Translations under genes and position numbers: made by a program
In this document: positions 3,214-30,147 of the stretch, in pieces
Numbering within the stretch: the first letter of the stretch is position 1
Layout: every line of letters begins with the position of its first letter
Virus record (IMG/VR): IMGVR_UViG_3300027991_000002
Coordinates: 1 to 64,000 of that record
From: a virus
Taxonomy: Duplodnaviria > Caudoviricetes
Direction: 5' to 3' (one strand)
DNA length: 64,000 nt
Notes under the pieces: generated by a model
Told to the model about the DNA's origin: nothing
What the model saw: only the letters and a program-made list of their open reading frames with translations
The model's database searches: none

Positions 3214-3464
3214 CAAACAACATGAAAAAGATTTGCAGAAATTGTAAACAGCCCGATTATAAATGTAGTTGTGGTGAAACTGATTTGGTTGATGCCGCGT
3301 TTGCGGTTGCCGAAGGAATTATCGAAGCGGAAATCATTTCTTCGCTGTTCGATTCATTCACATCTTCGAGCGACTCGTCAAGTTCATCCTCTGATTCTTC
3401 GTCAGGATTTGACGGCTTTGGTGGCGGGGATTTTGGCGGAGGCGGTGCGGACGGAAGTTGGTAA
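3210..3464 (+). CDS. Hypothetical protein with Cys-rich N-terminus and Ser/Gly-rich tail
   Basis: CRNCKQPDYKCSC; ends GFDGFGGGDFGGGGADGSW. Confidence 0.6.
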   Translation: MTNNMKKICRNCKQPDYKCSCGETDLVDAAFAVAEGIIEAEIISSLFDSFTSSSDSSSSSSDSSSGFDGFGGGDFGGGGADGSW

Positions 3465-3856: not shown

Positions 3857-5248
3857 ATGATTACTTTACGTCCCAACCAAGTTGAGCCAACCGATATAGG
3901 TATTCGGTTTTTCCAAAAGAGCGAGCCGCTCCCCTCTATTATTGTCGCGCCAACAGCTTTCGGAAAGTCAATAGTGATTGCAAAAATTGCCGAGAGCGTA
4001 GAAGATAATTTACTTATTCTGCAACCCTCAAAGGAATTGCTCGAACAAAATTTCGGGAAGTACATTGCGCTTGGCGGTCATGCCGCGATTTATTCCGCGT
4101 CTTTCAACTCTCGAAAAATCGGTGACGTCACTTACGCAACCATCGGTTCGATTAAAAAACTTGGCGCACACTTCAAAGAACTTGGCTTTACCAAAATGAT
4201 TATTGACGAGGCACATCTCTATCCGAGAGAGTCCGATTCGATGCTCGGAAAATTTTTAGCCGACAGTCAGATAACTCACGTGCTTGGTTTAACCGCAACC
4301 CCTTTAAAACTTCAAACTAATTTCGATGCAGGTGGAAATCCGTTTTCAAAATTAGTCATGCTTACGAGCAAGAGCAAGAAAGGAAACTTCTTCAAAGATA
4401 TAATTTACGTTTCACAAATACAAGAGATGGTTGAATTAAATTTTTGGAGTAAAATTGAATATGAGCAGTACGATATTGATGAATCAGGATTAGTTTACAA
4501 TTCCACCAAAGCTGAATTTACAGAGGAGAGTATTCGCGCTGTTTATAAATCCAACAACTTAGAAAAAATGATTCGGGCAAAGTTGGATGAGGTAAGCCAC
4601 AGGAAAAGCGTTGCTGTTTTTGTTCCGTCCGTTGCCGAAGCGCGGGAGCTTGCCGAAGCCATACCAAACTCCGTTGCTATATACGGAAATATGCCAGCCA
4701 AAGAAAGAACGGCAGCCGTTAAAGGATTTAAGTCAGGAAGCATAAAAACTGTTTTCAATGTCAATGTTTTGTCCGTTGGGTTCGACCATCCCGAACTCGA
4801 CACTATCATCTGCGCTCGTTCTACTGCCTCACTTGCGTGGTTCTATCAGGCAATGGGCAGAGGCACTCGTATCGCTCCGAACAAAAAGGATTGTTTGATT
4901 GTGGACTTCTCCGGCAACGTAAGGCGGTTCGGTAAAATTGAGAAGTTGTATTACAAAAAAGAAAATATCTGGAAGTTATACGGTGAGGGAGGTAAGCTGA
5001 TAACAGGATGCCCGATACACGAACTCGGTGAGCGAACAGAGTCATCCGAAGTATTGCGTGAAAAAGCAAAAACCGAACCGATACTAACCTTTGGGCAGCA
5101 CAAAGGCAAGCATATAGCCGATGTCCCCGAAGATTACCGTAAATGGATGATGTCTGATAGGTTTGAATGGAACAAGTGGAATATTCACATAAAAAAGTAC
5201 ATTGAAAAAAATCTTATGCCTAAAAAAGAGGAGGTTATCAATGGGTAA
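3857..5248 (+). CDS. SF2 (DEAH-type) DNA helicase with a C-terminal DUF3820-like domain
   Basis: APTAFGKS (I), IIDEAH (II), TAT (III), LSVGFDHP (V), QAMGRGTR (VI); C-terminal LTFGQHKGKHIADVPEDYRKW. Confidence 0.85.
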   Translation: MITLRPNQVEPTDIGIRFFQKSEPLPSIIVAPTAFGKSIVIAKIAESVEDNLLILQPSKELLEQNFGKYIALGGHAAIYSASFNSRKIGDVTYATIGSIKKLGAHFKELGFTKMIIDEAHLYPRESDSMLGKFLADSQITHVLGLTATPLKLQTNFDAGGNPFSKLVMLTSKSKKGNFFKDIIYVSQIQEMVELNFWSKIEYEQYDIDESGLVYNSTKAEFTEESIRAVYKSNNLEKMIRAKLDEVSHRKSVAVFVPSVAEARELAEAIPNSVAIYGNMPAKERTAAVKGFKSGSIKTVFNVNVLSVGFDHPELDTIICARSTASLAWFYQAMGRGTRIAPNKKDCLIVDFSGNVRRFGKIEKLYYKKENIWKLYGEGGKLITGCPIHELGERTESSEVLREKAKTEPILTFGQHKGKHIADVPEDYRKWMMSDRFEWNKWNIHIKKYIEKNLMPKKEEVING

Positions 5249-5990
5249 GGACAGTTATTGGTTCAGGCACGACTCAACCGCAGGACGCGGATTGCGCCTC
5301 CGAAAAATCGCTCATATCTACGGGCATTGGGGAAAGGGTATCTATTGGGACGTTATAGAAATATTGCGAGAACAGGATAATTATTGCCATTTAAAGGACG
5401 ATTCCTCACTTCAAATGTTATGTTCGTTAATTGGTTGTACTGACACCACAAAATTCGTAAATTGGTATAAAGATTGCATTAAAATTGACCTTTTGCAAGA
5501 AGATGCCAGTTCATTTTTTTCTTCTGTTTTGCGAAAAAATATGGGTTTTTGGGAAAAGCAAAAACGTAATGGAGGGCTATCGTCAGGAAATAAAGAGCCA
5601 AAGCATAGCCAAAGCATAGCCAAACTTAAGCCAACTAAAAGCCAAAGTAAAGCCAAAGTAAAGCCAAAGCATAACATAATAGGAGATAATATAATAATAA
5701 AGAATAAGATTAAAAAGGAGCAGTTGCTATTTTCTTCTTCTCCTTTTTTCGATAAGGTAGAGTTTGCGAAGGCGTTAGCGGGGTGGTCGAAGGACAAACT
5801 TAAGTACTACTACGACTCCGCGTTGACTTGGAGCAACGAAGGAAATAGCAAAAAGGATTGGATAGCTACGGTCAAAACTTGGGCAGCGCGGGACGAGAAG
5901 CTGGGAAAACTTAAATTCCAACCAGATAAAATAGAAACTCTAACAGCACCAGCGATTGACGCTGATGATTTTTACGACAGACGAAAATGA
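5241..5990 (+). CDS. Replication initiator (DUF4373/Lin1244-like N-terminus)
   Basis: YWFRHDS..GIYWDVIEILREQ, internal iterons, located next to the primase-helicase. Confidence 0.65.
   Translation: MGKDSYWFRHDSTAGRGLRLRKIAHIYGHWGKGIYWDVIEILREQDNYCHLKDDSSLQMLCSLIGCTDTTKFVNWYKDCIKIDLLQEDASSFFSSVLRKNMGFWEKQKRNGGLSSGNKEPKHSQSIAKLKPTKSQSKAKVKPKHNIIGDNIIIKNKIKKEQLLFSSSPFFDKVEFAKALAGWSKDKLKYYYDSALTWSNEGNSKKDWIATVKTWAARDEKLGKLKFQPDKIETLTAPAIDADDFYDRRK
5596..5672. repeat. Seven tandem 11-bp iterons (AGCCAAAGYAW-like); probable replication origin
   Basis: agccaaagcat x2, agccaaactta, agccaactaaa, agccaaagtaa x2, agccaaagcat, followed by an AT-rich tract. Confidence 0.75.
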
Positions 5991-7837: not shown

Positions 7838-8058
7838 TGCAACCAACCCTCCACCGCTGGTGGTATTGCAACCAAACATTTCGCGTAAAAGGACAGGAAT
7901 TTACCTATCTTGAAGCGGACTTTGACGACAACCGAGAATCAATAATCAGGTTCACAGACGGCAAGAAACGCTATACAATGCCAGAAACAGAGTTTTTTAA
8001 AAAAGTTTCAACATTAAAATTTGAATTACCTAAACCCGAACTCCTGCTAACCCGATGA
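7837..8058 (+). CDS. Hypothetical protein (73 aa)
   Basis: ORF coupled to the primase stop codon. Confidence 0.5.
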   Translation: MQPTLHRWWYCNQTFRVKGQEFTYLEADFDDNRESIIRFTDGKKRYTMPETEFFKKVSTLKFELPKPELLLTR

Positions 8059-8075
8059 ACTAAAAATAAAAAACT

Positions 8076-8471
8076 ATGAAAAAAAAAATCACAATTCTAT
8101 TCATGCTGACATTCAGCAGTTTGTTTGCGCAAATCAAACCTGAAAATATTGCTGTTGTTAGAAAGGTCGAATATTACACTTGGTACAAAGATACGACTAT
8201 TTGGACAACTGAAACAGTCACACATGGTGCAGGAAGCGGGGCGGTTGGCGGGGCGATACTTGGACATCTCTTGTTCGATATGCCTGTTACGGGCGCAATA
8301 ATCGGGGCTGCTGCCAATACCAAAATAGAAACATATCCCGTTCAAAAAGTCATACAAATTCCATTTAATGGCTATAAAGTTACTTTGAATGACGGATATT
8401 GGTTTAAAACATTTCATCAATATTCGCAATATGAAGTTGTGGATAAATCTAAACTTGATATTTGGAAGTGA
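8076..8471 (+). CDS. Exported glycine-zipper protein
   Basis: Signal peptide MKKKITILFMLTFSSLFA; GAVGGAILG..GAIIGAAA. Confidence 0.6.
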   Translation: MKKKITILFMLTFSSLFAQIKPENIAVVRKVEYYTWYKDTTIWTTETVTHGAGSGAVGGAILGHLLFDMPVTGAIIGAAANTKIETYPVQKVIQIPFNGYKVTLNDGYWFKTFHQYSQYEVVDKSKLDIWK

Positions 8472-8545
8472 AATTTAGGACGCACTCCTCCAAAGCACTT
8501 ATTCCACCACCCAAACATTTAAACTCCAAAATCGAAAGGAAAATC

Positions 8546-8908
8546 ATGTCAGTTAAAAGAATACAACGAAAGAGAACTCTTGGGTGGAAGATGCCCGAAA
8601 ATACTGTTTATGTCGGACGCGGGACGAAGTGGGGAAATCCGTTTGCGGTTGGGAAGTCCATTCCGAAACATTGGGAAAGTGTTTTTGACGATGCGGATAA
8701 ATTTCACTACTTCAAATGGATGGGCGATGTCGAAACAAATGAGGAGGCGGTTTATCTATTCAAAAAATATTGTATTCCATCGGTAGATGAACTCGAAATT
8801 AAGGAGTTACGCGGAAAAAATTTAGCTTGCTGGTGCAAAGAGAAAGAAAGATTTTGCCATGCAGATGAACTTTTAAAAATTGCCAATACTGAACTGACTG
8901 TTAAATGA
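8546..8908 (+). CDS. DUF4326-family protein
   Basis: VYVGRGTKWGNPF..LRGKNLACWC..CHAD. Confidence 0.7.
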   Translation: MSVKRIQRKRTLGWKMPENTVYVGRGTKWGNPFAVGKSIPKHWESVFDDADKFHYFKWMGDVETNEEAVYLFKKYCIPSVDELEIKELRGKNLACWCKEKERFCHADELLKIANTELTVK

Positions 8909-9046
8909 AACCCGAAGAAAGAAGATTAAAGCAATGGCGCAACGGAAAGCGAACATTTACCGAATGGTTGCGCGACCCAAAATGCACATTACTTATAAAC
9001 AACATGGATTTTCCTGAGCCAATAATTTTTAAAAAGCTAAAGTCGC

Positions 9047-9520
9047 GTGAAAACCTGTAAAGATTGTTCCCGCCCCGTTTTCACGCATGGCTACTGTAAA
9101 TCTCATGCGGCAAAATATTACTTGGGGAAGAAGAAAAAAACTCGCGGACAGTTGGTTAAGGAACTTGACCGCGTTTTCAGCATCTTCATTCGTCAGCGCG
9201 GTATGGACGCTCGCGGGTTCAATAGCTGTTATACCTGCGGGACTACCGCCCGATGGCAGGATTTACAATGCGGTCACTTCATTTCCCGCAGACACTACTC
9301 TACCCGTTGGGATGAGAAGAACTGCAAACCGCAGGATGCAAAATGCAACGTGTTCAATCAGGGCAACGCGCCCGTGTTCGCGGCAAAACTCATTGAGGAA
9401 TACGGGGCAAGTATTTTAAATCTTCTCATCGCCAAAAAAAATAACCTGATGAAAATTACCAATACTGAACTTGAAATTTTAATTAACGAATATAATTCAA
9501 AGAACGAGAGTGTAAAATAA
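9047..9520 (+). CDS. NinG/Rap-like recombination endonuclease
   Basis: LDRVFSIFIRQR..CYTCG..QCGHFISRRHYSTRWDEKNC..CN. Confidence 0.75.
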   Translation: MKTCKDCSRPVFTHGYCKSHAAKYYLGKKKKTRGQLVKELDRVFSIFIRQRGMDARGFNSCYTCGTTARWQDLQCGHFISRRHYSTRWDEKNCKPQDAKCNVFNQGNAPVFAAKLIEEYGASILNLLIAKKNNLMKITNTELEILINEYNSKNESVK

Positions 9521-12169: not shown

Positions 12170-12689
12170 GTAAGTAAGTTGATGATAAAAGTAAGGGCTT
12201 ACACCCCATTTTTCGGGGCATACCTTTTCACTCAGGGAAATTCACTTTTAAACAACCCATCCCCCTTACTGAAATCTGACTTTTGAATTCTGAAAACAGA
12301 AATTAAATATCTGTTGCAGGATGACAACAGGACTGCATTACGTTGCGAATATCAAGCGCAAGAGATAAGAGAATGATAATGTGTGTTTGAACGGGTGAAA
12401 CGTTATTACGCAATGTTATTCTATTGGCTTGCCGATGTGAACATGACAACATAAAAAAGTGTTTACCCGTATTTCTGAGCATATTTGCCACTATTTGCCT
12501 ATGTTCAACACGGAAATAATAATAAATTCGATGGCTAAAAGTGATTTGAAAAAGACCGCGAAAACAGTTTTTAGTTTGTGGTTAGGGTGAAAAGGGGTTG
12601 ACCTCTTGTTAAATAAATTTGTTTTTAGTGTTAATTAGTTTTTACTTGTCAATATACAGGAGAATAAAAATAGTTTGTAATTTTGTCGT

Positions 12690-13338: not shown

Positions 13339-13488
13339 ATGAAACAAACAACTAAAAACGACCTGATGACAATAGCAGAATACGCAGCTACTAAAGGAGT
13401 AAGCGTACAAACTATATATAATTGGATTGAGAAGAAAGATTTGAAAACGCGCAAGGTTGGAAAAATCACCTTAGTAATAGTGAACTAA
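13339..13488 (+). CDS. Excisionase-like HTH protein (49 aa; not in the ORF track)
   Basis: LMTIAEYAATKGVSVQTIYNWI. Confidence 0.65.
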   Translation: MKQTTKNDLMTIAEYAATKGVSVQTIYNWIEKKDLKTRKVGKITLVIVN

Positions 13489-13535
13489 TTTTTTTGTCTT
13501 ATATATTGAAACTTTTAAACTTACAAACAGTAAAC

Positions 13536-21283: not shown

Positions 21284-22315
21284 ATGCAAGCAACAGAAAC
21301 GAATGCCCTTGTTCAAGTAGTTGAAACAAGCGGACTCGAACAAACTAAAGGGCAAATCCTTTTAGGAATGTTCACCCCATACTTTAACCGTATGGCAGAA
21401 ATTGAGGGTAAAATTAATTTGCTCAATAAAGAAAATCCATCTCCTCAAGATGTGAGCGCGGCAAGAGATATTCGTATCTCTCTGATGAAAGAGGTTCGCA
21501 AGCCAGCCGAGCGCGTGAAGGATGAAGGAAAAAAGTCAATCCTTATTGAAGGTCGCCTGTATGACAATCTATACGGAGTGATTAACAACACCTCCAAAGG
21601 GCTTGAAATGCAATGTGAGCAAATTGAAAAGTTCGCTGAACTTCGAGATTTAAAAATGCGTGAAGAAAGAAAGGTTAAACGAGTAGAGCAACTTTCTCCC
21701 TATGTTCCTGATATTTCATTTTACGATTTACTCAATATGCCTGACGATGCTTTTAACTCATTACTTGCTACTCAAAAAGCAGGACAAGAGGCATTGTTAG
21801 CCCAACAAAAAAGAGAAGAAGAAGAAAGAATCGCAAAGGAAAAAGCTGATGCCGAAGCGCGTGAAGCACAGAGGGTAGAAAATGAACGGCTTAAAGCAGA
21901 GGCGGCAGAAAAGGAAAGGCAACTTGCCGAAGAACGCGCAAAAGTAGAAGCGGAGCGTAAAGCCGCAGAAGAAAAGTTACGCAAGGAAAGAGCCGAAGCC
22001 GATGCTAAAATAAAAGCCGCGCAGGAAGCGCAAGCCAAGGTTGAGGCAGAATTAAAAGCCAAAGCCGATGCAGAAGAAAAAGCGAAGCGTGAAGCCGAAG
22101 CAAAAGCAGCAGCCGAACTAAAAGCACAACAAGCCGCAGAAAAGAAAGCCGCGAAAGCACCTGACAAAGAAAAACTAAATAAATGGATTTCTGATTTTGA
22201 CTTGCAACCGCTTCTCACATTAAAAGATGCTGGCGCAAAACAAATTGAAGAAGATATAGTCAGAAAGTTTTCTGCATTTAAAACATGGGCATTGCAACAA
22301 ATCGAAACGCTATGA
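21284..22315 (+). CDS. Coiled-coil protein with an E/A/K/R-rich segment (343 aa)
   Basis: Long helical low-complexity region. Confidence 0.6.
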   Translation: MQATETNALVQVVETSGLEQTKGQILLGMFTPYFNRMAEIEGKINLLNKENPSPQDVSAARDIRISLMKEVRKPAERVKDEGKKSILIEGRLYDNLYGVINNTSKGLEMQCEQIEKFAELRDLKMREERKVKRVEQLSPYVPDISFYDLLNMPDDAFNSLLATQKAGQEALLAQQKREEEERIAKEKADAEAREAQRVENERLKAEAAEKERQLAEERAKVEAERKAAEEKLRKERAEADAKIKAAQEAQAKVEAELKAKADAEEKAKREAEAKAAAELKAQQAAEKKAAKAPDKEKLNKWISDFDLQPLLTLKDAGAKQIEEDIVRKFSAFKTWALQQIETL

Positions 22316-23322
22316 ACACAAAAGATTTTGAAGAAGTAAAAACCGTTTGGACGGATGACATTATCATTCACAAACAGCCGTATACCGTTTACAGAATAAA
22401 AGTTGGCGGAGGAAGAATTTACTATACGCTGGATGCAGACAATAATCCTACGTTCTATATTTCGCTCACCACCCTTACCAAGCATACGCTCCCAACGGGA
22501 GAACAATTAATAAAATGGATTGCTCAAACAGGGTACTATGAGTCTAAGAGATATATGAACGAAAGAGCAAACTACGGTACTTTAATGCACATGGCAATCG
22601 GACAATTCCTTATCTTAAAGTTTTGGAACTTTGAACAGTCCGAAGATTTTATTACCAACACTATTCAAGATGGGGCTATTGATGCTATTGAACCCGATAA
22701 GTATAATGATGACCTGAATCGTGACGTTGCCGCATTCGCTCAATTTTGTGTAGAGCATAAAGTAAGACCATTGGCAATAGAACTTGTACTTGTATCTAAT
22801 AAAGGGTACGCTACTTTAATTGACCTTGTGTGCAGAATGACTATTGAGGAGAAAGGGTACTTTGGAGAAACGTACAAGTCAGGAGTACAAAAAGGAAATC
22901 CGAAAGAATCAAAACGCGAAAAAGAAATCACCGCGCTGTTAAACTTTAAATCAGGCAAGAAAGGATTTTATGAGGAGAACGAAATTCAACTTGAGTTTGA
23001 AAAGAAATTGTTTGAAGAAAATTATCCTGAAATAAAAATTGACAAGATATTTAATTGGTCGCCTAAAGATTGGAACAACTCACCAACATATAATCTGAAA
23101 GACCAATCTGATTCATTGAACAAAGAAAAGGCAGATGCCCTACTTGCTATTGCCGCGATTGAGCTTATGAAAAAAACTCCGATGGAAAGAAAGTTAGTAG
23201 GCACACTTTCGCTTGGTCAAACTCCGCAAATTGAAGACAAAACTATTTATGATATTGTCAGGGAGCGAGCCGCGAAAAGGCACGTAGAGAATGTTCCGAA
23301 GAAAGAAGAAATGGCAATTTGA
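22312..23322 (+). CDS. PD-(D/E)XK-like exonuclease/recombination protein
   Basis: YYISLTT..ANYGTLMHMAI..AIELVL..YATLIDLVC..LNFKSG. Confidence 0.55.
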   Translation: MNTKDFEEVKTVWTDDIIIHKQPYTVYRIKVGGGRIYYTLDADNNPTFYISLTTLTKHTLPTGEQLIKWIAQTGYYESKRYMNERANYGTLMHMAIGQFLILKFWNFEQSEDFITNTIQDGAIDAIEPDKYNDDLNRDVAAFAQFCVEHKVRPLAIELVLVSNKGYATLIDLVCRMTIEEKGYFGETYKSGVQKGNPKESKREKEITALLNFKSGKKGFYEENEIQLEFEKKLFEENYPEIKIDKIFNWSPKDWNNSPTYNLKDQSDSLNKEKADALLAIAAIELMKKTPMERKLVGTLSLGQTPQIEDKTIYDIVRERAAKRHVENVPKKEEMAI

Positions 23323-23355: not shown

Positions 23356-23445
23356 ATAGAACGAAGAAGCACTAACGAATGTAAAATTTTTGCCATTGAA
23401 AACAGACAGATTAAAAATTTTATTTCGCTTTGTGCTGTGTTATGC
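23356..23445 (-). mobile_element. attC-like site 11 (90 bp, terminal)
   Basis: ATAGAAC..agcactaacgaatgtaaaattttt / aaaaattttatttcgctttgtgct..GTTATGC. Confidence 0.7.
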
Positions 23446-23531
23446 GAGTGCGCATGGATTTTATGCGGTGGGGTTCGTTCTTTTTTCTGTTTTCAATTTT
23501 TAGCGTTGGCATTAATTAAACAATCATAAAT

Positions 23532-23948
23532 ATGAAAAGGCAACAAACAATAGTATCGGAAAAAGAAATCCTGAAACTCGGTGGAGTTGATAAGGGATAT
23601 AAATTTGAACGCACCAAGCATGAACATGGGGATAGAGAAAAAATATTCTATAAGCAATGGAAGAAGGAAAATAAGCAGTTACGATGGCTAAACTTCGGGC
23701 AGGGAATATTGCAGGATTTATTTGCCATTACTGGTAATAATCCTTTCAACTTTATGAGGGGAGGATTGATAGGTTGGAAATTAATAATCAACAGGAGGGA
23801 TAGATACATTGTGGCAACAGTGATGCAATGGCTCGGAACAAATTGCGGTTGGTGCTGGCTTGAAGAAACACTTAGGAAGTGCGGGTACAGATTAGAAAAA
23901 ATTGAGCGGGAGGAAAAAATTGAAAACAGAAAAAAGAATGTCGCATAA
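23532..23948 (+). CDS. Cassette gene, hypothetical (138 aa)
   Basis: Stop TAA lies inside the GCATAAC core box. Confidence 0.65.
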   Translation: MKRQQTIVSEKEILKLGGVDKGYKFERTKHEHGDREKIFYKQWKKENKQLRWLNFGQGILQDLFAITGNNPFNFMRGGLIGWKLIINRRDRYIVATVMQWLGTNCGWCWLEETLRKCGYRLEKIEREEKIENRKKNVA

Positions 23949-24000
23949 CGGCAAACGCTTTATGCCGTTATTTTCAATGGCATTAAAGCGTATGTTCTAT
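23943..24000 (-). mobile_element. attC-like site 10 (58 bp)
   Basis: Minus strand: ATAGAAC-ATA-CGCTTTAATGCC-loop-GGCATAAAGCG-TTTGCC-GTTATGC. Confidence 0.85.
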
Positions 24001-24025
24001 TTAGGTTTTTAAAATTCTTTGAGCG

Positions 24026-24238
24026 ATGGCAAACAAAATATGCAGAATAACAATATTAGCTTTCATGTTCGGAGATATACCGAAAGGAATTGAGAACGGA
24101 TATGATGATTGGGACTTAGAAAACGGAATACAATATTGTGAAGAATTGATGCGCTATGAAGGAATGACACATGAACCGATGGATAAGTTTGAGTTGAAGA
24201 AATATATTGAATGGGCAAAACAGAAATTGAAAGAGTGA
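24026..24238 (+). CDS. Cassette gene, hypothetical (70 aa)
   Basis: ORF lies between matching cassette-end IRs. Confidence 0.6.
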   Translation: MANKICRITILAFMFGDIPKGIENGYDDWDLENGIQYCEELMRYEGMTHEPMDKFELKKYIEWAKQKLKE

Positions 24239-24261
24239 GTGTGGCAATTTTAAAAACTTGA

Positions 24262-24598
24262 ATAGAACGTTGCTCGGATTGAAGAATGTAAATTAAAATT
24301 ATAGCGATGCACAAGAACAGAACAGCAAACGGATTAAGGTTGCAAGAGCAACATAACCAACGTTACAAGAAAATGTTGATAGGAAAAAAAGCGAAGGACG
24401 GGCGAACGGTTATTAACACAGAATGGATTGGAAACAGCACATACGGATGTGTTCGATTATTTTTCGATAATCAAACCGATGATTTATGTAGTAGTACAAT
24501 GGGATTTAAACCGACAAGAGAGGATTTTACAGACAGGTACGGAATTACATGGTGAGCGATGGCAATTTTAATTTATTTCTTTCAATCTGGTGTTAGTT
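24262..24598 (-). mobile_element. attC-like site 9 (337 bp, gene in loop)
   Basis: ATAGAAC..ggattgaagaatgtaaattaaaatt / aattttaatttatttctttcaatct..GTTAGTT. Confidence 0.8.
24307..24555 (+). CDS. Cassette gene inside the attC loop, hypothetical (82 aa)
   Basis: ORF bracketed by AGCGATG direct repeats. Confidence 0.6.
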   Translation: MHKNRTANGLRLQEQHNQRYKKMLIGKKAKDGRTVINTEWIGNSTYGCVRLFFDNQTDDLCSSTMGFKPTREDFTDRYGITW

Positions 24599-24628
24599 TT
24601 AGTTTTTAACAGGCAAACAAAATAGAAA

Positions 24629-24820
24629 ATGGAAAAGTTATCAGACAAAGCAGAAAAGAGAATTAAGAAAATCTATCCTGATGCGAGGGCAGAGAGGGAT
24701 GGCGCAATGTTCTTTATAGTAACTGACTTACTTAAAGGAGAGGACAGAACTTTAGGTGGTGGATTTAGCAGAGATGGCGCGTGGTGTAGCGCGGGTTGCT
24801 CTGTGCCTGTTAAAAATTGA
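24629..24820 (+). CDS. Cassette gene, hypothetical (63 aa)
   Basis: Stop codon abuts the AACTAAC core box. Confidence 0.6.
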   Translation: MEKLSDKAEKRIKKIYPDARAERDGAMFFIVTDLLKGEDRTLGGGFSRDGAWCSAGCSVPVKN

Positions 24821-25166
24821 AACTAACGAGGAAGGATTTGTGAAGTAAAATTTTCGATTAAAAACTATAACCTTTAAAAACAGAAAAGCGATGGAAGTAA
24901 AAGGATTTTATATCAGAAGCAATGGCGACCCTTCGGTTGGTATATTCTCTGCTCAATGGGAATTGCGAAATGACTTCGTATTTGACGACATAGAAGATTT
25001 GGAATATTTCAGGTCGGGGCTTGCGCGTTTGCTCGGTGAGCATTGCGGGGAGAGGTGCTATGTGCAAACTTTTGAGGAGTGGGCTGAACAAATTAAATTA
25101 GAAGAAAAAATGTGTAGTGACGCACAGAAGGAAGAAAATTTTATTTCATCAAATCCTGTGTTGTCG
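24821..25166 (-). mobile_element. attC-like site 8 (346 bp)
   Basis: AACTAAC..aggatttgtgaagtaaaatt / aattttatttcatcaaatcct..GTTGTCG. Confidence 0.8.
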
Positions 25167-25253
25167 GATAGTTTGCCTTTTGATTTAGCAAGTCATCCTG
25201 ACACAGAAGCTGACGGACATGTATTCTGCGGTAAATGTGGAAAAGAAAAGTGA
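24891..25253 (+). CDS. Cassette gene, hypothetical (120 aa); starts in the attC loop and reads through the arm
   Basis: ORF track; ends 10 nt before CGACAAC. Confidence 0.6.
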   Translation: MEVKGFYIRSNGDPSVGIFSAQWELRNDFVFDDIEDLEYFRSGLARLLGEHCGERCYVQTFEEWAEQIKLEEKMCSDAQKEENFISSNPVLSDSLPFDLASHPDTEADGHVFCGKCGKEK

Positions 25254-25263
25254 GGCAAATTTC

Positions 25264-25795
25264 CGACAACGGGAAGGGGATTGAAGAATGTATTTTAATT
25301 TTTTAGCATGGGCAAACTAATGGTAACACCAATATTCCAAAACGAAGCGTTCGCGTTCATCGAACAACACCACAGGCATCATAGAAAGCCAGTAGGCAGC
25401 GTGTTTCAGATTGCAGTGAGCGAGGGTGAGCGTGTGGCAGGGGTGGCGGTTGTTGGCAGACCAAACGGACGAAAACAGCAGGACGGATTTACATTAGAAG
25501 TTACACGGCTATGCACAGACGGAACTAAAAATGCCTGCTCAATGCTTTATGCAGCTTGCTGGAGAGCAGCCAAAGAATTAGGTTATCGAAAACTGATTAC
25601 ATACATACTGAACACTGAGCCGGGGACATCATTAAAAGCAAGCGGGTGGAGATGCGTTGGGGAGCGCGGTGGCGGGAGTTGGAACGTACCGAGCCGCCCC
25701 CGTGTTGACAAACATCCGTTGCAGAAAAAATTGTTATTTGAAATCGAGTAGCGCGATGGGAAAATTAAAATATTTCTTTCAATCCCATGTTGTTG
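25264..25795 (-). mobile_element. attC-like site 7 (532 bp, gene in loop)
   Basis: CGACAAC..gggattgaagaatgtattttaatttt / aaaattaaaatatttctttcaatccc..GTTGTTG. Confidence 0.8.
25308..25751 (+). CDS. XF1762-family / Mom-like GNAT-fold protein (cassette gene in attC loop)
   Basis: FIEQHHRHH..GVAVVGRP..LEVTRLCTDG..NACSMLYAACWRAAKELGYRKLITY..SLKASGW. Confidence 0.75.
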   Translation: MGKLMVTPIFQNEAFAFIEQHHRHHRKPVGSVFQIAVSEGERVAGVAVVGRPNGRKQQDGFTLEVTRLCTDGTKNACSMLYAACWRAAKELGYRKLITYILNTEPGTSLKASGWRCVGERGGGSWNVPSRPRVDKHPLQKKLLFEIE

Positions 25796-25828
25796 GCAGC
25801 GTAGCTGAGTTTGCTTTTCGCAAATTGC

Positions 25829-26038
25829 CAACAACGTCACGCAGGATTTATGAAGGATTTTTTACGATTTTAAAACCAACAAATATGAAAACACCAAAAG
25901 AAATTTTAGAAGGAAAACAAGCATTCAAAGATTTCCTGTATAAAGCACCCGACTGGATTAGGGAAGACATTATTGCAGCAATGATGGAATACGCATTGGA
26001 GCAAGTAAAAAATCTTTCATTAAATCCTGTTGTTGTTG
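25829..26038 (-). mobile_element. attC-like site 6 (210 bp)
   Basis: CAACAAC..caggatttatgaaggattttttac / gtaaaaaatctttcattaaatcctg..GTTGTTG. Confidence 0.8.
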
Positions 26039-26145
26039 GGCGCAGCGAACAGTTAAAATCTGACTTGTACAAATTCAGGGATATGTATTGTCAAAATATT
26101 GACTTAGCTACCATAGATGAATATGTTGACGGCTTAGGATTTTAA
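25887..26145 (+). CDS. Cassette gene, hypothetical (MKTPKEILEG..)
   Basis: ATG 25887 follows an AT-rich leader; the upstream extension in the track crosses cassette boundaries and was rejected. Confidence 0.55.
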
Positions 26146-26149
26146 TTGC

Positions 26150-26280
26150 CAACAACGTTCATCGGATTTATTCTCGTTGCATTAAATGATAAAAACTTAA
26201 ACCATAAATAAAACTCATTATGAAAAACAAACCTACGATTAAAAAGAAAGCCAGCAATGGAATGAAATCCGTTGTTCATG
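26150..26280 (-). mobile_element. attC-like site 5 (131 bp)
   Basis: CAACAAC..cggatttattctcgttgc / gcaatggaatgaaatccg..GTTCATG. Confidence 0.75.
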
Positions 26281-26540
26281 GCAGTGCGGATAAATGGTCA
26301 AAAATTAAGTGGAGCAAAAAAGTTTTGCAAAAAGCGCAGGAAAATCATATCTGGTTGAACGCTTTTGATTGCGTAAGACCGACACCTGCATTCTGCGAAA
26401 GTCTTGGTAGGTCAATCATCAATAAATTACGGGATGAAGAAAATTTAATCCCGATGAGTGGCATTACATCGGATGTTGAAGCGATGCGAGAGATTGCAAA
26501 ACTTACCCCGATAATGTACATGAGCATTAACAAGAGCTAA
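26220..26540 (+). CDS. Cassette gene, hypothetical (106 aa)
   Basis: Starts in the attC loop and ends before CATGAAC. Confidence 0.6.
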   Translation: MKNKPTIKKKASNGMKSVVHGSADKWSKIKWSKKVLQKAQENHIWLNAFDCVRPTPAFCESLGRSIINKLRDEENLIPMSGITSDVEAMREIAKLTPIMYMSINKS

Positions 26541-26554
26541 GATGTGAGCATTGC

Positions 26555-26611
26555 CATGAACGGTAGAGATTGTTGCCGTTAATTTCAATGGCATACAATC
26601 TAATGTTATCT
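26555..26611 (-). mobile_element. attC-like site 4 (57 bp)
   Basis: Minus strand: AGATAAC-ATTA-GATTGTATGCC-loop-GGCAACAATC-TCTACC-GTTCATG. Confidence 0.85.
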
Positions 26612-26643
26612 GCCGTTTTGGATTAACTAAATAAATATAAATT

Positions 26644-26949
26644 ATGAAAGCAAAAGAGTATGCACAAAGGGTAACAAGTACAGAAAATGTTCAAGATGCA
26701 ATGACTGAGCTTGGCAAATGCGGAAAAGATTTTTTCAACGAATTTATCGCAATGAGAAAATCACGTAACATAAAAACCGATGATGGATTATTAACGCTGG
26801 TGAAAGAGTTCGATAATAAATTCAGAACATTTTCTGTACTTGTGGATTCACACTACAAAGGGATGGTTAAACCAAATGGATTCATTGAACTGCTTCGGGA
26901 GTTTGTTCCTGTACTTGCTAATGAATATGAAAGGAAAAATGGCAGATAA
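26644..26949 (+). CDS. Cassette gene, hypothetical (101 aa)
   Basis: Stop TAA lies inside the AGATAAC core box. Confidence 0.65.
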   Translation: MKAKEYAQRVTSTENVQDAMTELGKCGKDFFNEFIAMRKSRNIKTDDGLLTLVKEFDNKFRTFSVLVDSHYKGMVKPNGFIELLREFVPVLANEYERKNGR

Positions 26950-27778
26950 CGGTTACGGCTTTAAGCAGTGGGGATTATTAGCACAAATGTTCAATCGAAG
27001 CGATAAAAAAAATAAAGAAAAATTTTTAGGGAGGCATTTTTAATTTAATCATTTAATCATAAATAAAACAAAATGGAAAAAGTAACAAACACAGCAAAGA
27101 ACCCACGACTTGAATGGTTGATGGGTGGAAATCCTAATGCTATTGAAGCACAGGAAGTGCAAGGACAAAAGGAACTTGTGAAATCATCACAACTACCAGC
27201 GAAAGTAAATTCGCCAAGAGGAGTGAACATTGAGGAGCAATACGCCTTGATGGGAATAAAAGTAATTGGCAAAACCAAAGGAGATGAATTATTCCTTGAT
27301 GTGGAATTGCCAAATGGGTGGAAGAAGGAAGCAACCGACCATTCAATGTGGAATAAATTGGTTGATGATAAAGGAAGGGAAAGGGCAAGTTTCTTTTACA
27401 AAGCTGCATTTTATGACCGAGATGCTTTTGTGAATTTTAGCACACGGTATAATTGGAATGCCAATTACGAGGATAAGGACAATGTGAGCTACTTTGTAAA
27501 AGATAACTCCATAGGTGAAATTGTATTTGAAACAGAAAAGATGAGTAAAGATGTAAAACAGCCGAACTACTTTAAAATACAGGATGAGTTACAAAACCAA
27601 TGTAAACAATTTCTGAAAGACAAGTTCCCTGAACACGAAAACATAAATGCTTATTGGAATTAAATCATTTAATCATTAAGAGCGTGGGCAAAAATTTTTC
27701 TTTATTTTTTTTCGTTCATATCAGCACGAACTTAAATATGGAGCGATACACCCCATTGCTTTAAAGCCGATGTTATGC
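26944..27778 (-). mobile_element. attC-like site 3 (835 bp, gene in loop)
   Basis: AGATAAC..cggctttaagcagtgggg / ccccattgctttaaagccg..GTTATGC, plus inner arms aaaaaaataaagaaaaattttt / aaaaatttttctttattttttt. Confidence 0.8.
27073..27663 (+). CDS. Cassette gene in attC loop, conserved phage hypothetical (196 aa)
   Basis: GRERASFFYKAAFYDRDAF motif; flanked by a 14-bp direct repeat. Confidence 0.65.
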   Translation: MEKVTNTAKNPRLEWLMGGNPNAIEAQEVQGQKELVKSSQLPAKVNSPRGVNIEEQYALMGIKVIGKTKGDELFLDVELPNGWKKEATDHSMWNKLVDDKGRERASFFYKAAFYDRDAFVNFSTRYNWNANYEDKDNVSYFVKDNSIGEIVFETEKMSKDVKQPNYFKIQDELQNQCKQFLKDKFPEHENINAYWN

Positions 27779-27940
27779 GAAGTTGCCAATACCAAATTCA
27801 AAAAGACAAAAAACTCATTGGCAATTTTGCATAACGTTCGAGGATAAACGAAGTGCATGAGTAACCGAAAAATTAACTGAACAGCAAGTAAGAAATTTTA
27901 ATAAAAATATTTTTAGGGAGGGAATTTAAAAAACAACATT

Positions 27941-28099
27941 ATGAAAATAAACTTTGATGTGAACCTGCCGGATTGGTTTGTAATAACCGGACTTACTGTT
28001 TTTACAGTTTGGATGATTCTTGACATAATAAAAAACTGGCTCAAACTTATCATTTGGAATTATGAGAGGAAAATTAAAAAAATGGAAAACGAAAAGTAA
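27941..28099 (+). CDS. Small membrane protein (52 aa; not in the ORF track)
   Basis: MKINFDVNLPDWFVITGLTVFTVWMILDII..; TAATG coupling to the next gene. Confidence 0.5.
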   Translation: MKINFDVNLPDWFVITGLTVFTVWMILDIIKNWLKLIIWNYERKIKKMENEK

Positions 28100-28524
28100 T
28101 GGCAATCTTAAACTATACAACCTCCATTGATTCTGAAAAGACAATCGGAGAGATTCAAAAATGCTTAGTGAAGCACGGGGCAATGAAAATCACCACTGAT
28201 TATCAGAACGGGATTCCATGCGCTGTTACTTTCTGCCTAATCATCAAAGAGAATATGGTTGGGTTTGCATTGCCAGCAAATTATTCAGGCGTTCTCAGGG
28301 CAATGAAGCGAGATGGAAAAGTTCCGCGCTCAAAATGCACAGAGGAGCAGGCAATAAAAGTTTCATGGAGAATAGTGAAAGACTGGGTTGAAGCGCAGAT
28401 GGCAATAGTTGAAGCTGAACTTGCACAGATGGCGGAAGTGTTTTTGCCGTATGCAGTTACAAAGAATGGAAACACTCTTTGGAAACAGATGGAAGGAAAC
28501 GGAATGTTATTACTTAACTCTTAA
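28099..28524 (+). CDS. Cassette gene in attC loop, conserved phage hypothetical (141 aa)
   Basis: NYTTSID..WRIVKDWVEAQMA..EVFLPY. Confidence 0.65.
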   Translation: MAILNYTTSIDSEKTIGEIQKCLVKHGAMKITTDYQNGIPCAVTFCLIIKENMVGFALPANYSGVLRAMKRDGKVPRSKCTEEQAIKVSWRIVKDWVEAQMAIVEAELAQMAEVFLPYAVTKNGNTLWKQMEGNGMLLLNS

Positions 28525-28692
28525 CCTTTTTACAATTTGAAAAATTGTGATGAGCGTAGGCAAAATATTTTTATTAAAATTTCTCTAACCGTAATTGACA
28601 GTACAGATGGAAGCATTTCGTTTATCCTTTGTTATCAGATGAAAAATTATCCCTTTTGAGCGCGGGATGCTCGTAATTTAATAATTACAAAA

Positions 28693-28890
28693 ATGAAAAC
28701 ATGGGAATATAAAATTAATAGCGTAAATGAATATGATGCTTTTGAAAATGTTGGCGGCTCGGTTGCCGAAAGAATTTTAGATGGAGCGTCAAAAGACGGA
28801 TGGGAATTAGTGTCTGTTGTCGGAATAAACACAATGGTAATTTTTTACTTTAAAAGAGAATTAAATAATGGAGGTGCGGTGGCGGGATAA
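28693..28890 (+). CDS. DUF4177-like protein (cassette gene)
   Basis: WEYKI..GWELVSVV..FYFKRE. Confidence 0.6.
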   Translation: MKTWEYKINSVNEYDAFENVGGSVAERILDGASKDGWELVSVVGINTMVIFYFKRELNNGGAVAG

Positions 28891-28899
28891 TTTTTTTTC

Positions 28900-29027
28900 T
28901 GATAACGGATGAAGATAAAAGAAGCAGCCCTAAATAGAATGTTCAGCGGGTACGTAACCGATAGGGTAACTGAACTTAGGCAGACCTCCGATTTTGCTCG
29001 GCTGTTTCTTTTTATCTTGTGTTGTGT
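28900..29027 (-). mobile_element. attC-like site 1 (128 bp)
   Basis: TGATAAC..aagataaaagaagcagcc / ggctgtttctttttatctt..GTTGTGT. Confidence 0.8.
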
Positions 29028-29085
29028 GAGAGCATAGGGATTTCAGGCGATGGGCAGTTTTTAACTTAAAATAATTTTAAAGCGT

Positions 29086-29400
29086 ATGGCAAAGATTTAT
29101 TTCAGCAAATACAATGATGAGGAAGTGGCTTATACATTGGACTATTGGAAAACTTACATGGAAGAAAACCTCATTGAAGAAATGACATTGTTTGAAGGCA
29201 AGCGAATGACAGGCGAGGGCTATTTCTATTGTAAAGAATACTTTGAAGTTGGATTAGCGAGAGAGTCATGTGGAAAGATATGCGAGGGATATAAGCCGAA
29301 CAATGGCAAGAATGGCAGATGCAAACATTATGGATATTGCTATGAGCCAACAGATAAAAGGTTGGTGTTGCAAGCGGGCGGAAAAATTATTTTAAGTTAA
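29086..29400 (+). CDS. Cassette gene, Cys-rich hypothetical (104 aa)
   Basis: CKEY..CGKICEGYKP.NGKNGRCKHYGYCY. Confidence 0.6.
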   Translation: MAKIYFSKYNDEEVAYTLDYWKTYMEENLIEEMTLFEGKRMTGEGYFYCKEYFEVGLARESCGKICEGYKPNNGKNGRCKHYGYCYEPTDKRLVLQAGGKIILS

Positions 29401-29407
29401 AAATTTC

Positions 29408-29470
29408 ACACAACAAATATATGTATTTTTCTCTTACAACTATTTGAAACTTAAACCATAACACCATGCA
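29408..29470 (-). mobile_element. Candidate attI site
   Basis: Minus-strand G|TTGTGT core matches cassette 1 but has no attC arms; lies just upstream of the int-like gene. Confidence 0.55.
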
Positions 29471-29492
29471 AAATTTTTTGTATATTTAAAAC

Positions 29493-30062: not shown

Positions 30063-30147
30063 CTCTCTCCTTGCAAACTTATATTCACATGAGTTCAAAG
30101 ATTGTAGCGAATGTGGTTACTCCGCTAAACTTTATCCGGCAGTCAGC

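Follow-up and report, generated by a model that had tools for sequence, protein, structure and literature searches.

The subject of the present analysis is an array of small genes and hairpin-forming sites in the genome of a phage (Duplodnaviria; Caudoviricetes) deposited as IMG/VR record IMGVR_UViG_3300027991_000002. The viral contig has a length of 75,207 bp with 127-bp direct terminal repeats at its ends, and its first 64 kb (positions 1 to 64,000) were analyzed as the window. In the window, phage replication genes are encoded on the + strand, and the - strand carries large structural genes. Between 23.3 and 29.5 kb there is a series of small open reading frames (ORFs) on the + strand, in a region with an unusually high G-over-C skew (0.17-0.26). 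Here hairpin sites with the outer boxes AAC...GTT alternate with GTT...AAC bodies, and the resulting array is followed by an attI-like sequence and by the gene of a GIY-YIG nuclease that carries a core-binding domain of tyrosine recombinases (Table 1). An initial annotation had described seven of these sites as attC-like, four of them with arms that enclose complete ORFs and three with an ORF that starts in the loop and reads through an arm; the arms and the enclosed ORFs were indeed located where it had placed them.

The refined limits used in this study place the start of each site at the A of AAC and its end at the final T of GTT. With these limits, S1, S2, S3, S4, S7 and S8 have lengths of 202-827 nt and are outside the length range of integron attC sites, for which 57-141 bp and a variable terminal structure have been described (PMC5371416). 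Whole ORFs are present in the loops of S1, S3, S7 and S8. The loops enclose real genes, as had been claimed: the S3 loop ORF is a Mom-family gene (Pfam PF25680, E = 2.6e-7), one loop gene has 15 phage homologues, and the second loop ORF of S8 matches phrog_17260.

Table 1. Sites, bodies and attI-like end of the cassette array (positions in the window; z-scores of arm pairing are given against dinucleotide shuffles)
Feature	Position	Strand	Description
Whole cassette array	23360-29414	+	11 AAC...GTT sites alternating with GTT...AAC bodies; the end is the last AAC box
Small site sm0, 82 nt	23360-23441	+	No ORF
Small site sm1, 50 nt	23947-23996	+	Loop motif TGCCGTTATTTTCAATGGCA, common to sm6 and one site of phage G001
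Giant site S1, 329 nt	24266-24594	+	Loop ORF 24307-24555 (82 aa); arm duplex -18.3 kcal/mol; z -4.2
Site S2, 338 nt	24825-25162	+	ORF 24891-25253 from the loop through the 3' arm, stops before the next AAC box; z -6.7; detector -19.7 kcal/mol
Giant site S3, 524 nt	25268-25791	+	Mom-family ORF 25308-25751 in the loop; z -6.7
Empty GTT...AAC body, 47-nt hairpin	25789-25835	+	10-bp stem GTTGTTGGCA/TGCCAACAAC; completes the S3 cassette
Site S4, 202 nt	25833-26034	+	ORF 25885-26145 from the loop through the 3' arm; z -7.5; detector -20.9 kcal/mol
Site S5, 123 nt	26154-26276	+	ORF 26220-26540 from the loop through the 3' arm; z -3.5; detector -14.0 kcal/mol
Small site sm6, 49 nt	26559-26607	+	Shares loop motif with sm1
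Giant site S7, 827 nt	26948-27774	+	Loop ORF 27073-27663; 20-bp core stem, then internal loop; z -4.6; detector -20.3 kcal/mol
Empty GTT...AAC body, 64-nt hairpin	27772-27835	+	Completes the S7 cassette
Giant site S8, 801 nt	27833-28633	+	Loop ORFs 27941-28099 and 28099-28524; 16-bp core stem; z -4.0; detector -17.3 kcal/mol
Small site sm9, 120 nt	28904-29023	+	No ORF
attI-like sequence after the last AAC box	29412-29492	+	AAC AAATATATGTAT...; conserved with L242, L245, L244 and L249
GIY-YIG nuclease with tyrosine-recombinase core-binding (SAM-like) domain, 189 aa	29493-30062	+	Pfam PF01541, PF02899; no catalytic recombinase domain

Folding of the sites as single-stranded DNA (ssDNA) and comparison of the arm pairing with shuffled sequences had been proposed as checks in the initial annotation, and the arm pairing held in both. 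The two 60-nt ends of each site pair at -13 to -26 kcal/mol, the arm-arm duplex energies amount to -14.8 to -26.2 kcal/mol, and all seven sites are far beyond chance when compared with dinucleotide shuffles (z = -3.5 to -7.5). In ssDNA folds, minimum-energy as well as ensemble, 22-34 arm-arm pairs are retained in every site, the 835-nt one included, and the arm stem of S1 is found in both the minimum free energy and the centroid folds. The arms are 83-100% paired. The arms of S1 are homologous to those of S3, the genes in the two loops are unrelated, and all four differing positions in a 12-bp stretch of the arms are compensated.

The same signal was obtained when the array was compared with the remainder of the genome and with control sequences. 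Ungapped inverted repeats with a score of at least 15 and a spacing of at most 1200 nt occur eight times in the 75,207-bp genome, each time inside the region of 23.3-29.5 kb. When the flanking inverted repeats were ranked over 226 ORFs, the top four ranks were taken by array ORFs, and the inverted-repeat score did not exceed 10 in 94 control gene contexts, compared with 14-23 in the array. Moreover, a thermodynamic detector (AACG...TGTT and an anchored arm duplex of -13 kcal/mol or below) retrieved six long sites from the 6.2-kb array at -16.2 to -20.9 kcal/mol, whereas 144 kb of control sequence of the same composition gave four matches on both strands, the best of them at -14.7 kcal/mol. The idea of fortuitous arm matches in intergenic DNA rich in A and T could draw on the A/T-richness of the arms and on the many false matches of the detector in a GC-rich bacterial contig; it is refuted by these controls, and its probability is next to nil. 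The detector was used in place of an ungapped AAC...GTT stem search, which missed most sites due to the bulged base described below, and a 15-nt arm pattern was discarded as a search tool because it gave 118 chance matches.

For the analysis of the site architecture, the arms of 25 sites from three phages were aligned, consisting of the 11 sites of the window and 14 sites in two other phages. AAC/GTT outer boxes on an imperfect hairpin are present in all of them. The common plan reads xxxxAAC, 4-8 unpaired nt, a stem of 5-8 bp, a single base bulged out of the 3' arm, another stem that often has fixed G·T pairs, a spacer of 1-4 nt, and GTTyyyy. The spacer is asymmetric, with 4-8 nt next to the AAC box and 1-4 nt next to the GTT box. 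The single bulged base after the 5-8 bp stem was observed in about 19 of the 25 sites and in 9 of the 10 long or ORF-invaded ones. Short sites (49-126 nt) and long sites follow the same plan, and L-stem families (GGATTGAAG... and GGCTAAACGAAG...) are present in both. By their boxes, spacer asymmetry, bulged base and L-stem families the long sites fall into one family with the short ones. We consider it somewhat more probable than not that the long sites genuinely belong to the family of recombination sites used by an integron-like cassette system of phages.

The layout with cargo in the loops is not limited to the window and recurs in an independent phage with an intact recombinase. This second phage, G001 (74,657 bp, with terminal repeats), was found via the loop motif common to two small sites. 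Its array has the same grammar, extends over about 120-5623 in L124 and ends at a GIY-YIG gene that is fused to a complete tyrosine recombinase (L124 5690-6874). G001 has three giant sites (L124 496-1000, 1042-1700 and 5207-5585), whose arms pair at -21.7 to -22.7 kcal/mol, and the last of these is the cassette adjoining the attI-like site. Additionally, the sm6 region (26558-26611) and a G001 site (L121 207-261) share 85% identity over 55 nt; in phages that otherwise have only the nuclease gene in common, this gives a hint that sites or cassettes are drawn from a shared pool. G001 also contains an ORF-less cassette of 147 nt, termed cassette X, in four full copies (L124 1746-1893, 3185-3332, 3766-3913 and 4763-4910; 149-150 of 150 nt identical) and in one copy truncated at the contig start (1-121). 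Each copy begins directly after the AA of the preceding box. An analogous element is present in L139, with three ORF-less repeated cassettes at 451-595, 2855-2999 and 3278-3422, each likewise placed directly behind the AA of a box. A search against Rfam gave no match in any of the three arrays, these repeated structured cassettes of about 145-150 nt included. The near-identity of the repeated cassettes in G001 suggests recent activity. Taken together, the intact enzyme, the signs of recent activity and the long-site cassette next to the attI-like site provide the best, albeit indirect, argument that long sites can be used.

The combination of array, attI-like sequence, GIY-YIG core-binding protein and tyrosine recombinase, either fused or as two genes, was found in G001, L139, L242, L245 and L248, and the relatives have the order array, attI-like sequence, recombinase on one strand. 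The grammar of the sites is common to four phage contigs which otherwise look unrelated. In L242/L243, L245/L246 and L248 a separate recombinase gene of 276-279 aa directly follows a short nuclease gene, and the arrays are located upstream (modules at L245 8001-9453, with genes at 8001-8636 and 8623-9453, L242 7042-8498 and L248 2463-3912). Outside the module, no similarity between the phage backbones was detected in the regions compared. The fused protein of G001 has about 15 full-length relatives, and the next tier of matches consists of chromosomal recombinases of Bacteroidota. Three other queries were less productive: the flanking gene 22285-23322 retrieved one relative of 40% without an array, the S1/S3 arm pattern matched only methyltransferase coding sequence in JGI metagenomes, and the loop pattern of the small sites matched only coding sequence, with no AAC/GTT context, in bacterial genomes and a jumbo phage. 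Of two alignments, A2 proved too diverse to locate loci, and A3 retrieved nothing beyond the record of L245 itself.

Behind the last AAC, each lineage, the window included, has a conserved attI-like sequence; in the family of fused recombinases AAC GGTAWATATACGC occupies this position. The 189-aa protein encoded behind it in the window belongs to a conserved family of short proteins (P0122-P0135, 174-224 aa) and is not a fresh truncation. The gene of this short family either precedes a separate recombinase gene or is fused to one, and stands alone in the window and in L249. A search for longer versions gave no full-length relatives of the 189-aa protein, and the short GIY-YIG core-binding protein is encoded by no cultured phage of the GenBank set. 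No tyrosine recombinase was found anywhere in the genome and no match to PF00589 was obtained. Since the nuclease gene is kept and the recombinase is absent, the array of this phage is probably static. At 30080-30139 there is a 20-aa match (LYSH..., E = 1.6) to the region of the C-terminal tyrosine motif of the L245 recombinase; it is the only trace downstream of 30062 and could stem from a deleted recombinase gene, but the match is not significant and was not counted as evidence. The recombinase of the relatives scores below the cut-off of TIGR02249 (132 vs 265 bits), skips the IntI residues 208-245, which form the IntI-specific insertion, when aligned to VchIntIA (2a3v), and is nearest to XerA/XerC-type enzymes. 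A possible role of the GIY-YIG nuclease would be the resolution of the one-strand exchange or, alternatively, site-directed cleavage of the same sites.

The fold of the + strand is more stable than that of the - strand in all 11 sites. The mismatches in the stems are G·T in 59 cases and A·C in 4 cases overall (11 vs 0 in the window), where the base composition predicts about equal numbers. Judged by its folding, the + strand, which is the sense strand of the cargo, appears to be the counterpart of the integron bottom strand, so that the layout read from the right would match the succession of recombinase, attI and array. According to junction comparisons, the crossover would lie at AA|C of the + strand. 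The identical recombinase P0004 is encoded by three contigs that come from different samples; they share one sequence from ...ATAAC|GTATAATATACGC up to the gene and diverge leftward of that AAC. The copies of cassette X have their boundaries at the same position of the box. With the crossover at the AAC box of the + strand, the array would read from its right-hand end, and the cargo genes are oriented toward the attI-like end. In seven of 15 assemblies (L140, L142-L146 and L244), which are independent of each other, the contig starts at the attI-like sequence, 48-90 nt before the recombinase or nuclease gene, and this suggests that the arrays are polymorphic within samples. L142-L144 derive from the samples SRR27753954, SRR27753937 and SRR27753941. 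The contig L141 begins with a sequencing adapter instead.

When the cassettes are framed from AA|C to AA|C, each array ORF of the window lies within one cassette and none is split. This modifies the picture of three ORFs reading through an arm: the read-through is seen in S2, S4 and S5, but each of these ORFs sits inside one AA|C cassette. The cassette ends are linked by complementarity, as each GTTyyyy box is complementary to the yyyyAAC box at the next site, with nine perfect matches of 7-10 nt (examples are GTTCTATT at 23994 with AATAGAAC at 24268, and GTTATCAG at 28631 with CTGATAAC at 28906). The complementarity is lengthened to 14-24 nt in six cases and reaches 19-24 nt in several cassettes. 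Due to this extended GTT...AAC pairing, the ORFs located between the sites are also bracketed by inverted repeats of 19-24 nt. The cargo occupies different places relative to the site. A short site with the gene in the body is found in four cassettes of the window and in all eleven of L245, while the gene begins in the loop and crosses the 3' arm in S2, S4, S5 and one case in L242. Genes lie on both sides of the core in S1 and S8. In S3 and S7 the gene is in the loop only and the body of 47-64 nt is empty, and the same holds for G001 at 496-1044 and 5207-5623, where the empty bodies that match the layout of the S3 cassette are located at L124 998-1044 and 5583-5623.

Among the cargo of the relatives are Tad6, several N6/N4 methyltransferases and a PAPS-reductase-like gene (L245 2106-2729, 3198-3887 and 6695-7408; L139 719-1618; L248 1618-2358). 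As far as it can be identified from such matches, the cargo is of the DNA-modification or anti-defence type. No reverse transcriptase or transposase domain of Pfam was detected in any loop ORF. The motif [AT]GCGN[ATG]GG[CGA] (e.g. GAGCGATGGC and GTGCGGTGGG) occupies the stretch that separates the ORFs from their bracketing stems, and in many cases it is present before as well as after a gene; 14 of its 28 + strand matches in the genome fall into the array (23464-29281), and it is enriched in G001 (17 matches in L124 1-5700) and not in L245 or L139. Perfect stems of 21-24 bp composed only of A and T bracket genes inside the sites and in the bodies, both in the window and in G001. In S7 and S8 such inner stems are perfect over 23 bp (27005-27027 with 27690-27712, and 27891-27913 with 28562-28584). 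Furthermore, a 16-nt direct repeat, ATCATTTAATCAT(A/T)AA, flanks the S7 loop ORF at 27048-27063 and 27664-27679, and a near-identical motif flanks the G001 ORF 2054-2608 (L124 about 2025-2040 and 2605-2622). Insertion of the loop genes with target duplication was considered and dropped, since a clear direct repeat was present only in S7 and the repeats of the other sites were at noise level. Two more inverted repeats were recorded: a perfect one of 19 nt (26674-26692 and 26825-26843) within the coding sequence of ORF 26644-26949, and one of 52 nt with 73% complementarity (12624-12675 and 13483-13534, arms 807 nt apart) in the early-gene region outside the array.

Several observations weigh against the reading of the long sites as recombination sites. 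The folding energy of whole sites is unexceptional in comparison with shuffles (z = -1.7 and -1.0), the signal being in the arms only. In a cell, pairing across 260-760 nt of ssDNA must compete with single-stranded DNA-binding protein and with stems of the GTT...AAC type. Arms are absent from 94 other phage loci that carry homologues of two loop genes; the arms belong to the system and not to the genes. A role of the stems in the mRNA would lead to the expectation of a G·T bias just as much. Lastly, the highest share of long sites (6-7 of 11) is found in this phage, which lacks a recombinase, and L245, which has a recombinase and 11 short sites, has no long site; this distribution is consistent with decay once the enzyme had been lost.

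The strand that folds is identical to the mRNA strand, and for this reason the stems could have a function in the processing or stability of RNA. According to this explanation each gene of a rightward polycistronic transcript would be bracketed by a stem of 20-24 bp for processing (e.g. by RNase III), stability or the control of translation; only the boxes and short local structure would be needed for DNA recombination, and a giant attC would be an overlay of two layers. The sense orientation of the folded strand, the mismatches, nearly all of which are compatible with G·U pairing, the perfect A/T-only stems that bracket genes in this phage and in G001, and the conserved motif between stems and ORFs with half of its + strand matches in the array would all agree with such a role. 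However, the long-range stem is continuous with the recombination core in S1, S2, S3 and S4, as in the short sites, and the complementarity of the boxes, the sharp AA| boundaries of the repeated cassettes and the variable first cassette are features at the DNA level. We regard it as unlikely that the stems act mainly in RNA.

The long sites could also be disabled relics, i.e. former short sites that were stretched by insertion or fusion, are no longer recombined and are tolerated after loss of the recombinase. This explanation is possible because the phage richest in long sites has no tyrosine recombinase and the enzyme-bearing L245 has no long site; the three ORFs that cross a 3' arm may likewise reflect relaxed constraint. 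Relics of this kind are difficult to reconcile with arms that are still largely paired, with the compensated changes between S1 and S3, and with the extra perfect inner stems, which resemble adaptations to a long loop. Moreover, G001, with its intact fused recombinase and near-identical repeated cassettes, has three long sites, one of them adjacent to the attI-like sequence. The relic explanation is judged to be quite improbable.

From the sequence, the folded + strand site consists of the R-box duplex (xxxxAAC/GTTyyyy), an asymmetric unpaired spacer and the L stem with one bulged base. The terminal loop is free to vary and in giant sites holds one or two complete genes, with the extra stems of 12-24 bp beside the gene clamping the distant arms. 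Cassettes extend from AA|C to AA|C, and their cargo is found beyond the R box, beyond the L stem, at either side of the core at once, or across the 3' arm. If the long sites are used as recombination sites, as we infer, the following mechanism can be envisaged. After excision, a single-stranded circle would have the shape of a dumbbell, and cassettes would differ only in which end of the core stem bears the gene. In the relatives, the Xer/IntI-like tyrosine recombinase, which is encoded next to the attI-like end, and its GIY-YIG partner, which bears the same type of core-binding domain, would cut at AA|C and insert cassettes beside the recombinase's own gene. The phage of the window no longer has the recombinase gene, and its array is probably a static store of cassettes, except where a recombinase acts in trans. 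The proposal of a distinct architecture with cargo stored in the attC loop is supported as far as the architecture is concerned, while the cassettes are better described as dumbbells with cargo on either side of the core. An earlier description of a cassette layout with genes in hairpin loops could not be found in the literature, and full-text searches returned neither a paper that connects cassette arrays with a GIY-YIG-linked recombinase nor one on attC-type loops that carry genes.

With respect to known systems, XerCD integrates the folded single-stranded DNA of the CTX phage at dif, which likewise involves an Xer-type tyrosine recombinase and an ssDNA hairpin, but concerns one phage genome at dif and no exchangeable cassette array. 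Integron attC sites share with the array sites the imperfect hairpin with AAC/GTT outer boxes, the unpaired central spacer, the extrahelical base, the variable loop and the folding of one strand (PMC5371416). Further similarities to integrons are the probable crossover at AA|C, the complementarity of the cassette start to the box of its own site and the presumed entry of new cassettes at a fixed site beside the recombinase gene. In contrast to integrons, array sites reach 200-830 nt with whole genes in the loop, the relatives' recombinase lacks the IntI-specific insertion and is accompanied by a GIY-YIG nuclease, and the cargo genes face the attI-like end, whereas integron genes read away from attI. 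In addition, cassette ends pair over 19-24 nt rather than 7, and the platform resides in phage genomes with terminal repeats. The boxes, the spacer and the bulged base agree with those of attC, but the sites are not strict integron attC sites, as there is no IntI and the insertion specific to it is missing in the recombinase of the relatives.

Clusters of attC sites lacking integron-integrases (CALINs) have been found in phage genomes with standard models and have attC sites of normal size (Qi et al. 2023, PMC9892861). They are comparable to the present array in that virulent phages, a Polaribacter (Bacteroidota) phage among them, carry attC-type arrays with small genes and no integrase in the genome; they differ in that their normal-sized sites number two to a few and a dedicated recombinase of the phage was not described (PMC9892861). 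A CALIN is defined by two or more attC sites called by IntegronFinder or HattCI without a nearby intI; by structure, the four short sites of the window look eligible as a CALIN. Group IIC-attC introns and IS1111-attC elements, which insert in attC sites (PMC3001079), similarly interrupt an attC site by a long ORF-bearing insert, but the loops of the array hold small cargo genes without a match to a reverse transcriptase, transposase or ribozyme, and the gene fills the loop almost exactly. The PeSL cassettes of T4-type phages are repeated promoter/stem-loop motifs thought to recombine by homology (PMC2839356, PMC4122927). As in the array, small accessory genes in a variable phage region are flanked by stem-loop motifs that promote shuffling; in contrast, the stems of the array differ in sequence from cassette to cassette with only boxes and architecture in common, the AA|C boundaries are fixed and a site-specific recombinase is linked.

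As a wider picture, put forward tentatively and with less than even confidence, phages of uncultured, probably Bacteroidota-infecting lineages may run a gene-capture system of their own, composed of an Xer-like recombinase with a GIY-YIG nuclease, an attI-like site and sites recognized as folded strands. Their hairpin would tolerate loops of up to about 0.8 kb, so that genes can be stored inside or beside the site, and cassettes with anti-defence cargo would circulate between unrelated phages as single-stranded dumbbell circles. Integrons resolve the one-strand exchange by replication (PMC3458562), and a recombinase which is not IntI and is always found with a GIY-YIG nuclease suggests another way of resolving it. 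Integron biology assumes compact sites of 57-141 bp. If hairpin sites with kilobase loops recombine, cassette surveys would miss a whole class due to the size limits of the software, and the view of how far apart the arms in ssDNA can be and still fold in vivo would have to be revised. Genes located beside a site, across an arm or inside a loop are, moreover, material for the question of how cassettes first arise. Finally, the cargo of this phage and of its relatives comprises a Mom-family gene, two N6/N4 methyltransferases, Tad6 and a PAPS-reductase-like gene, so that phages may use the system to exchange anti-defence genes.

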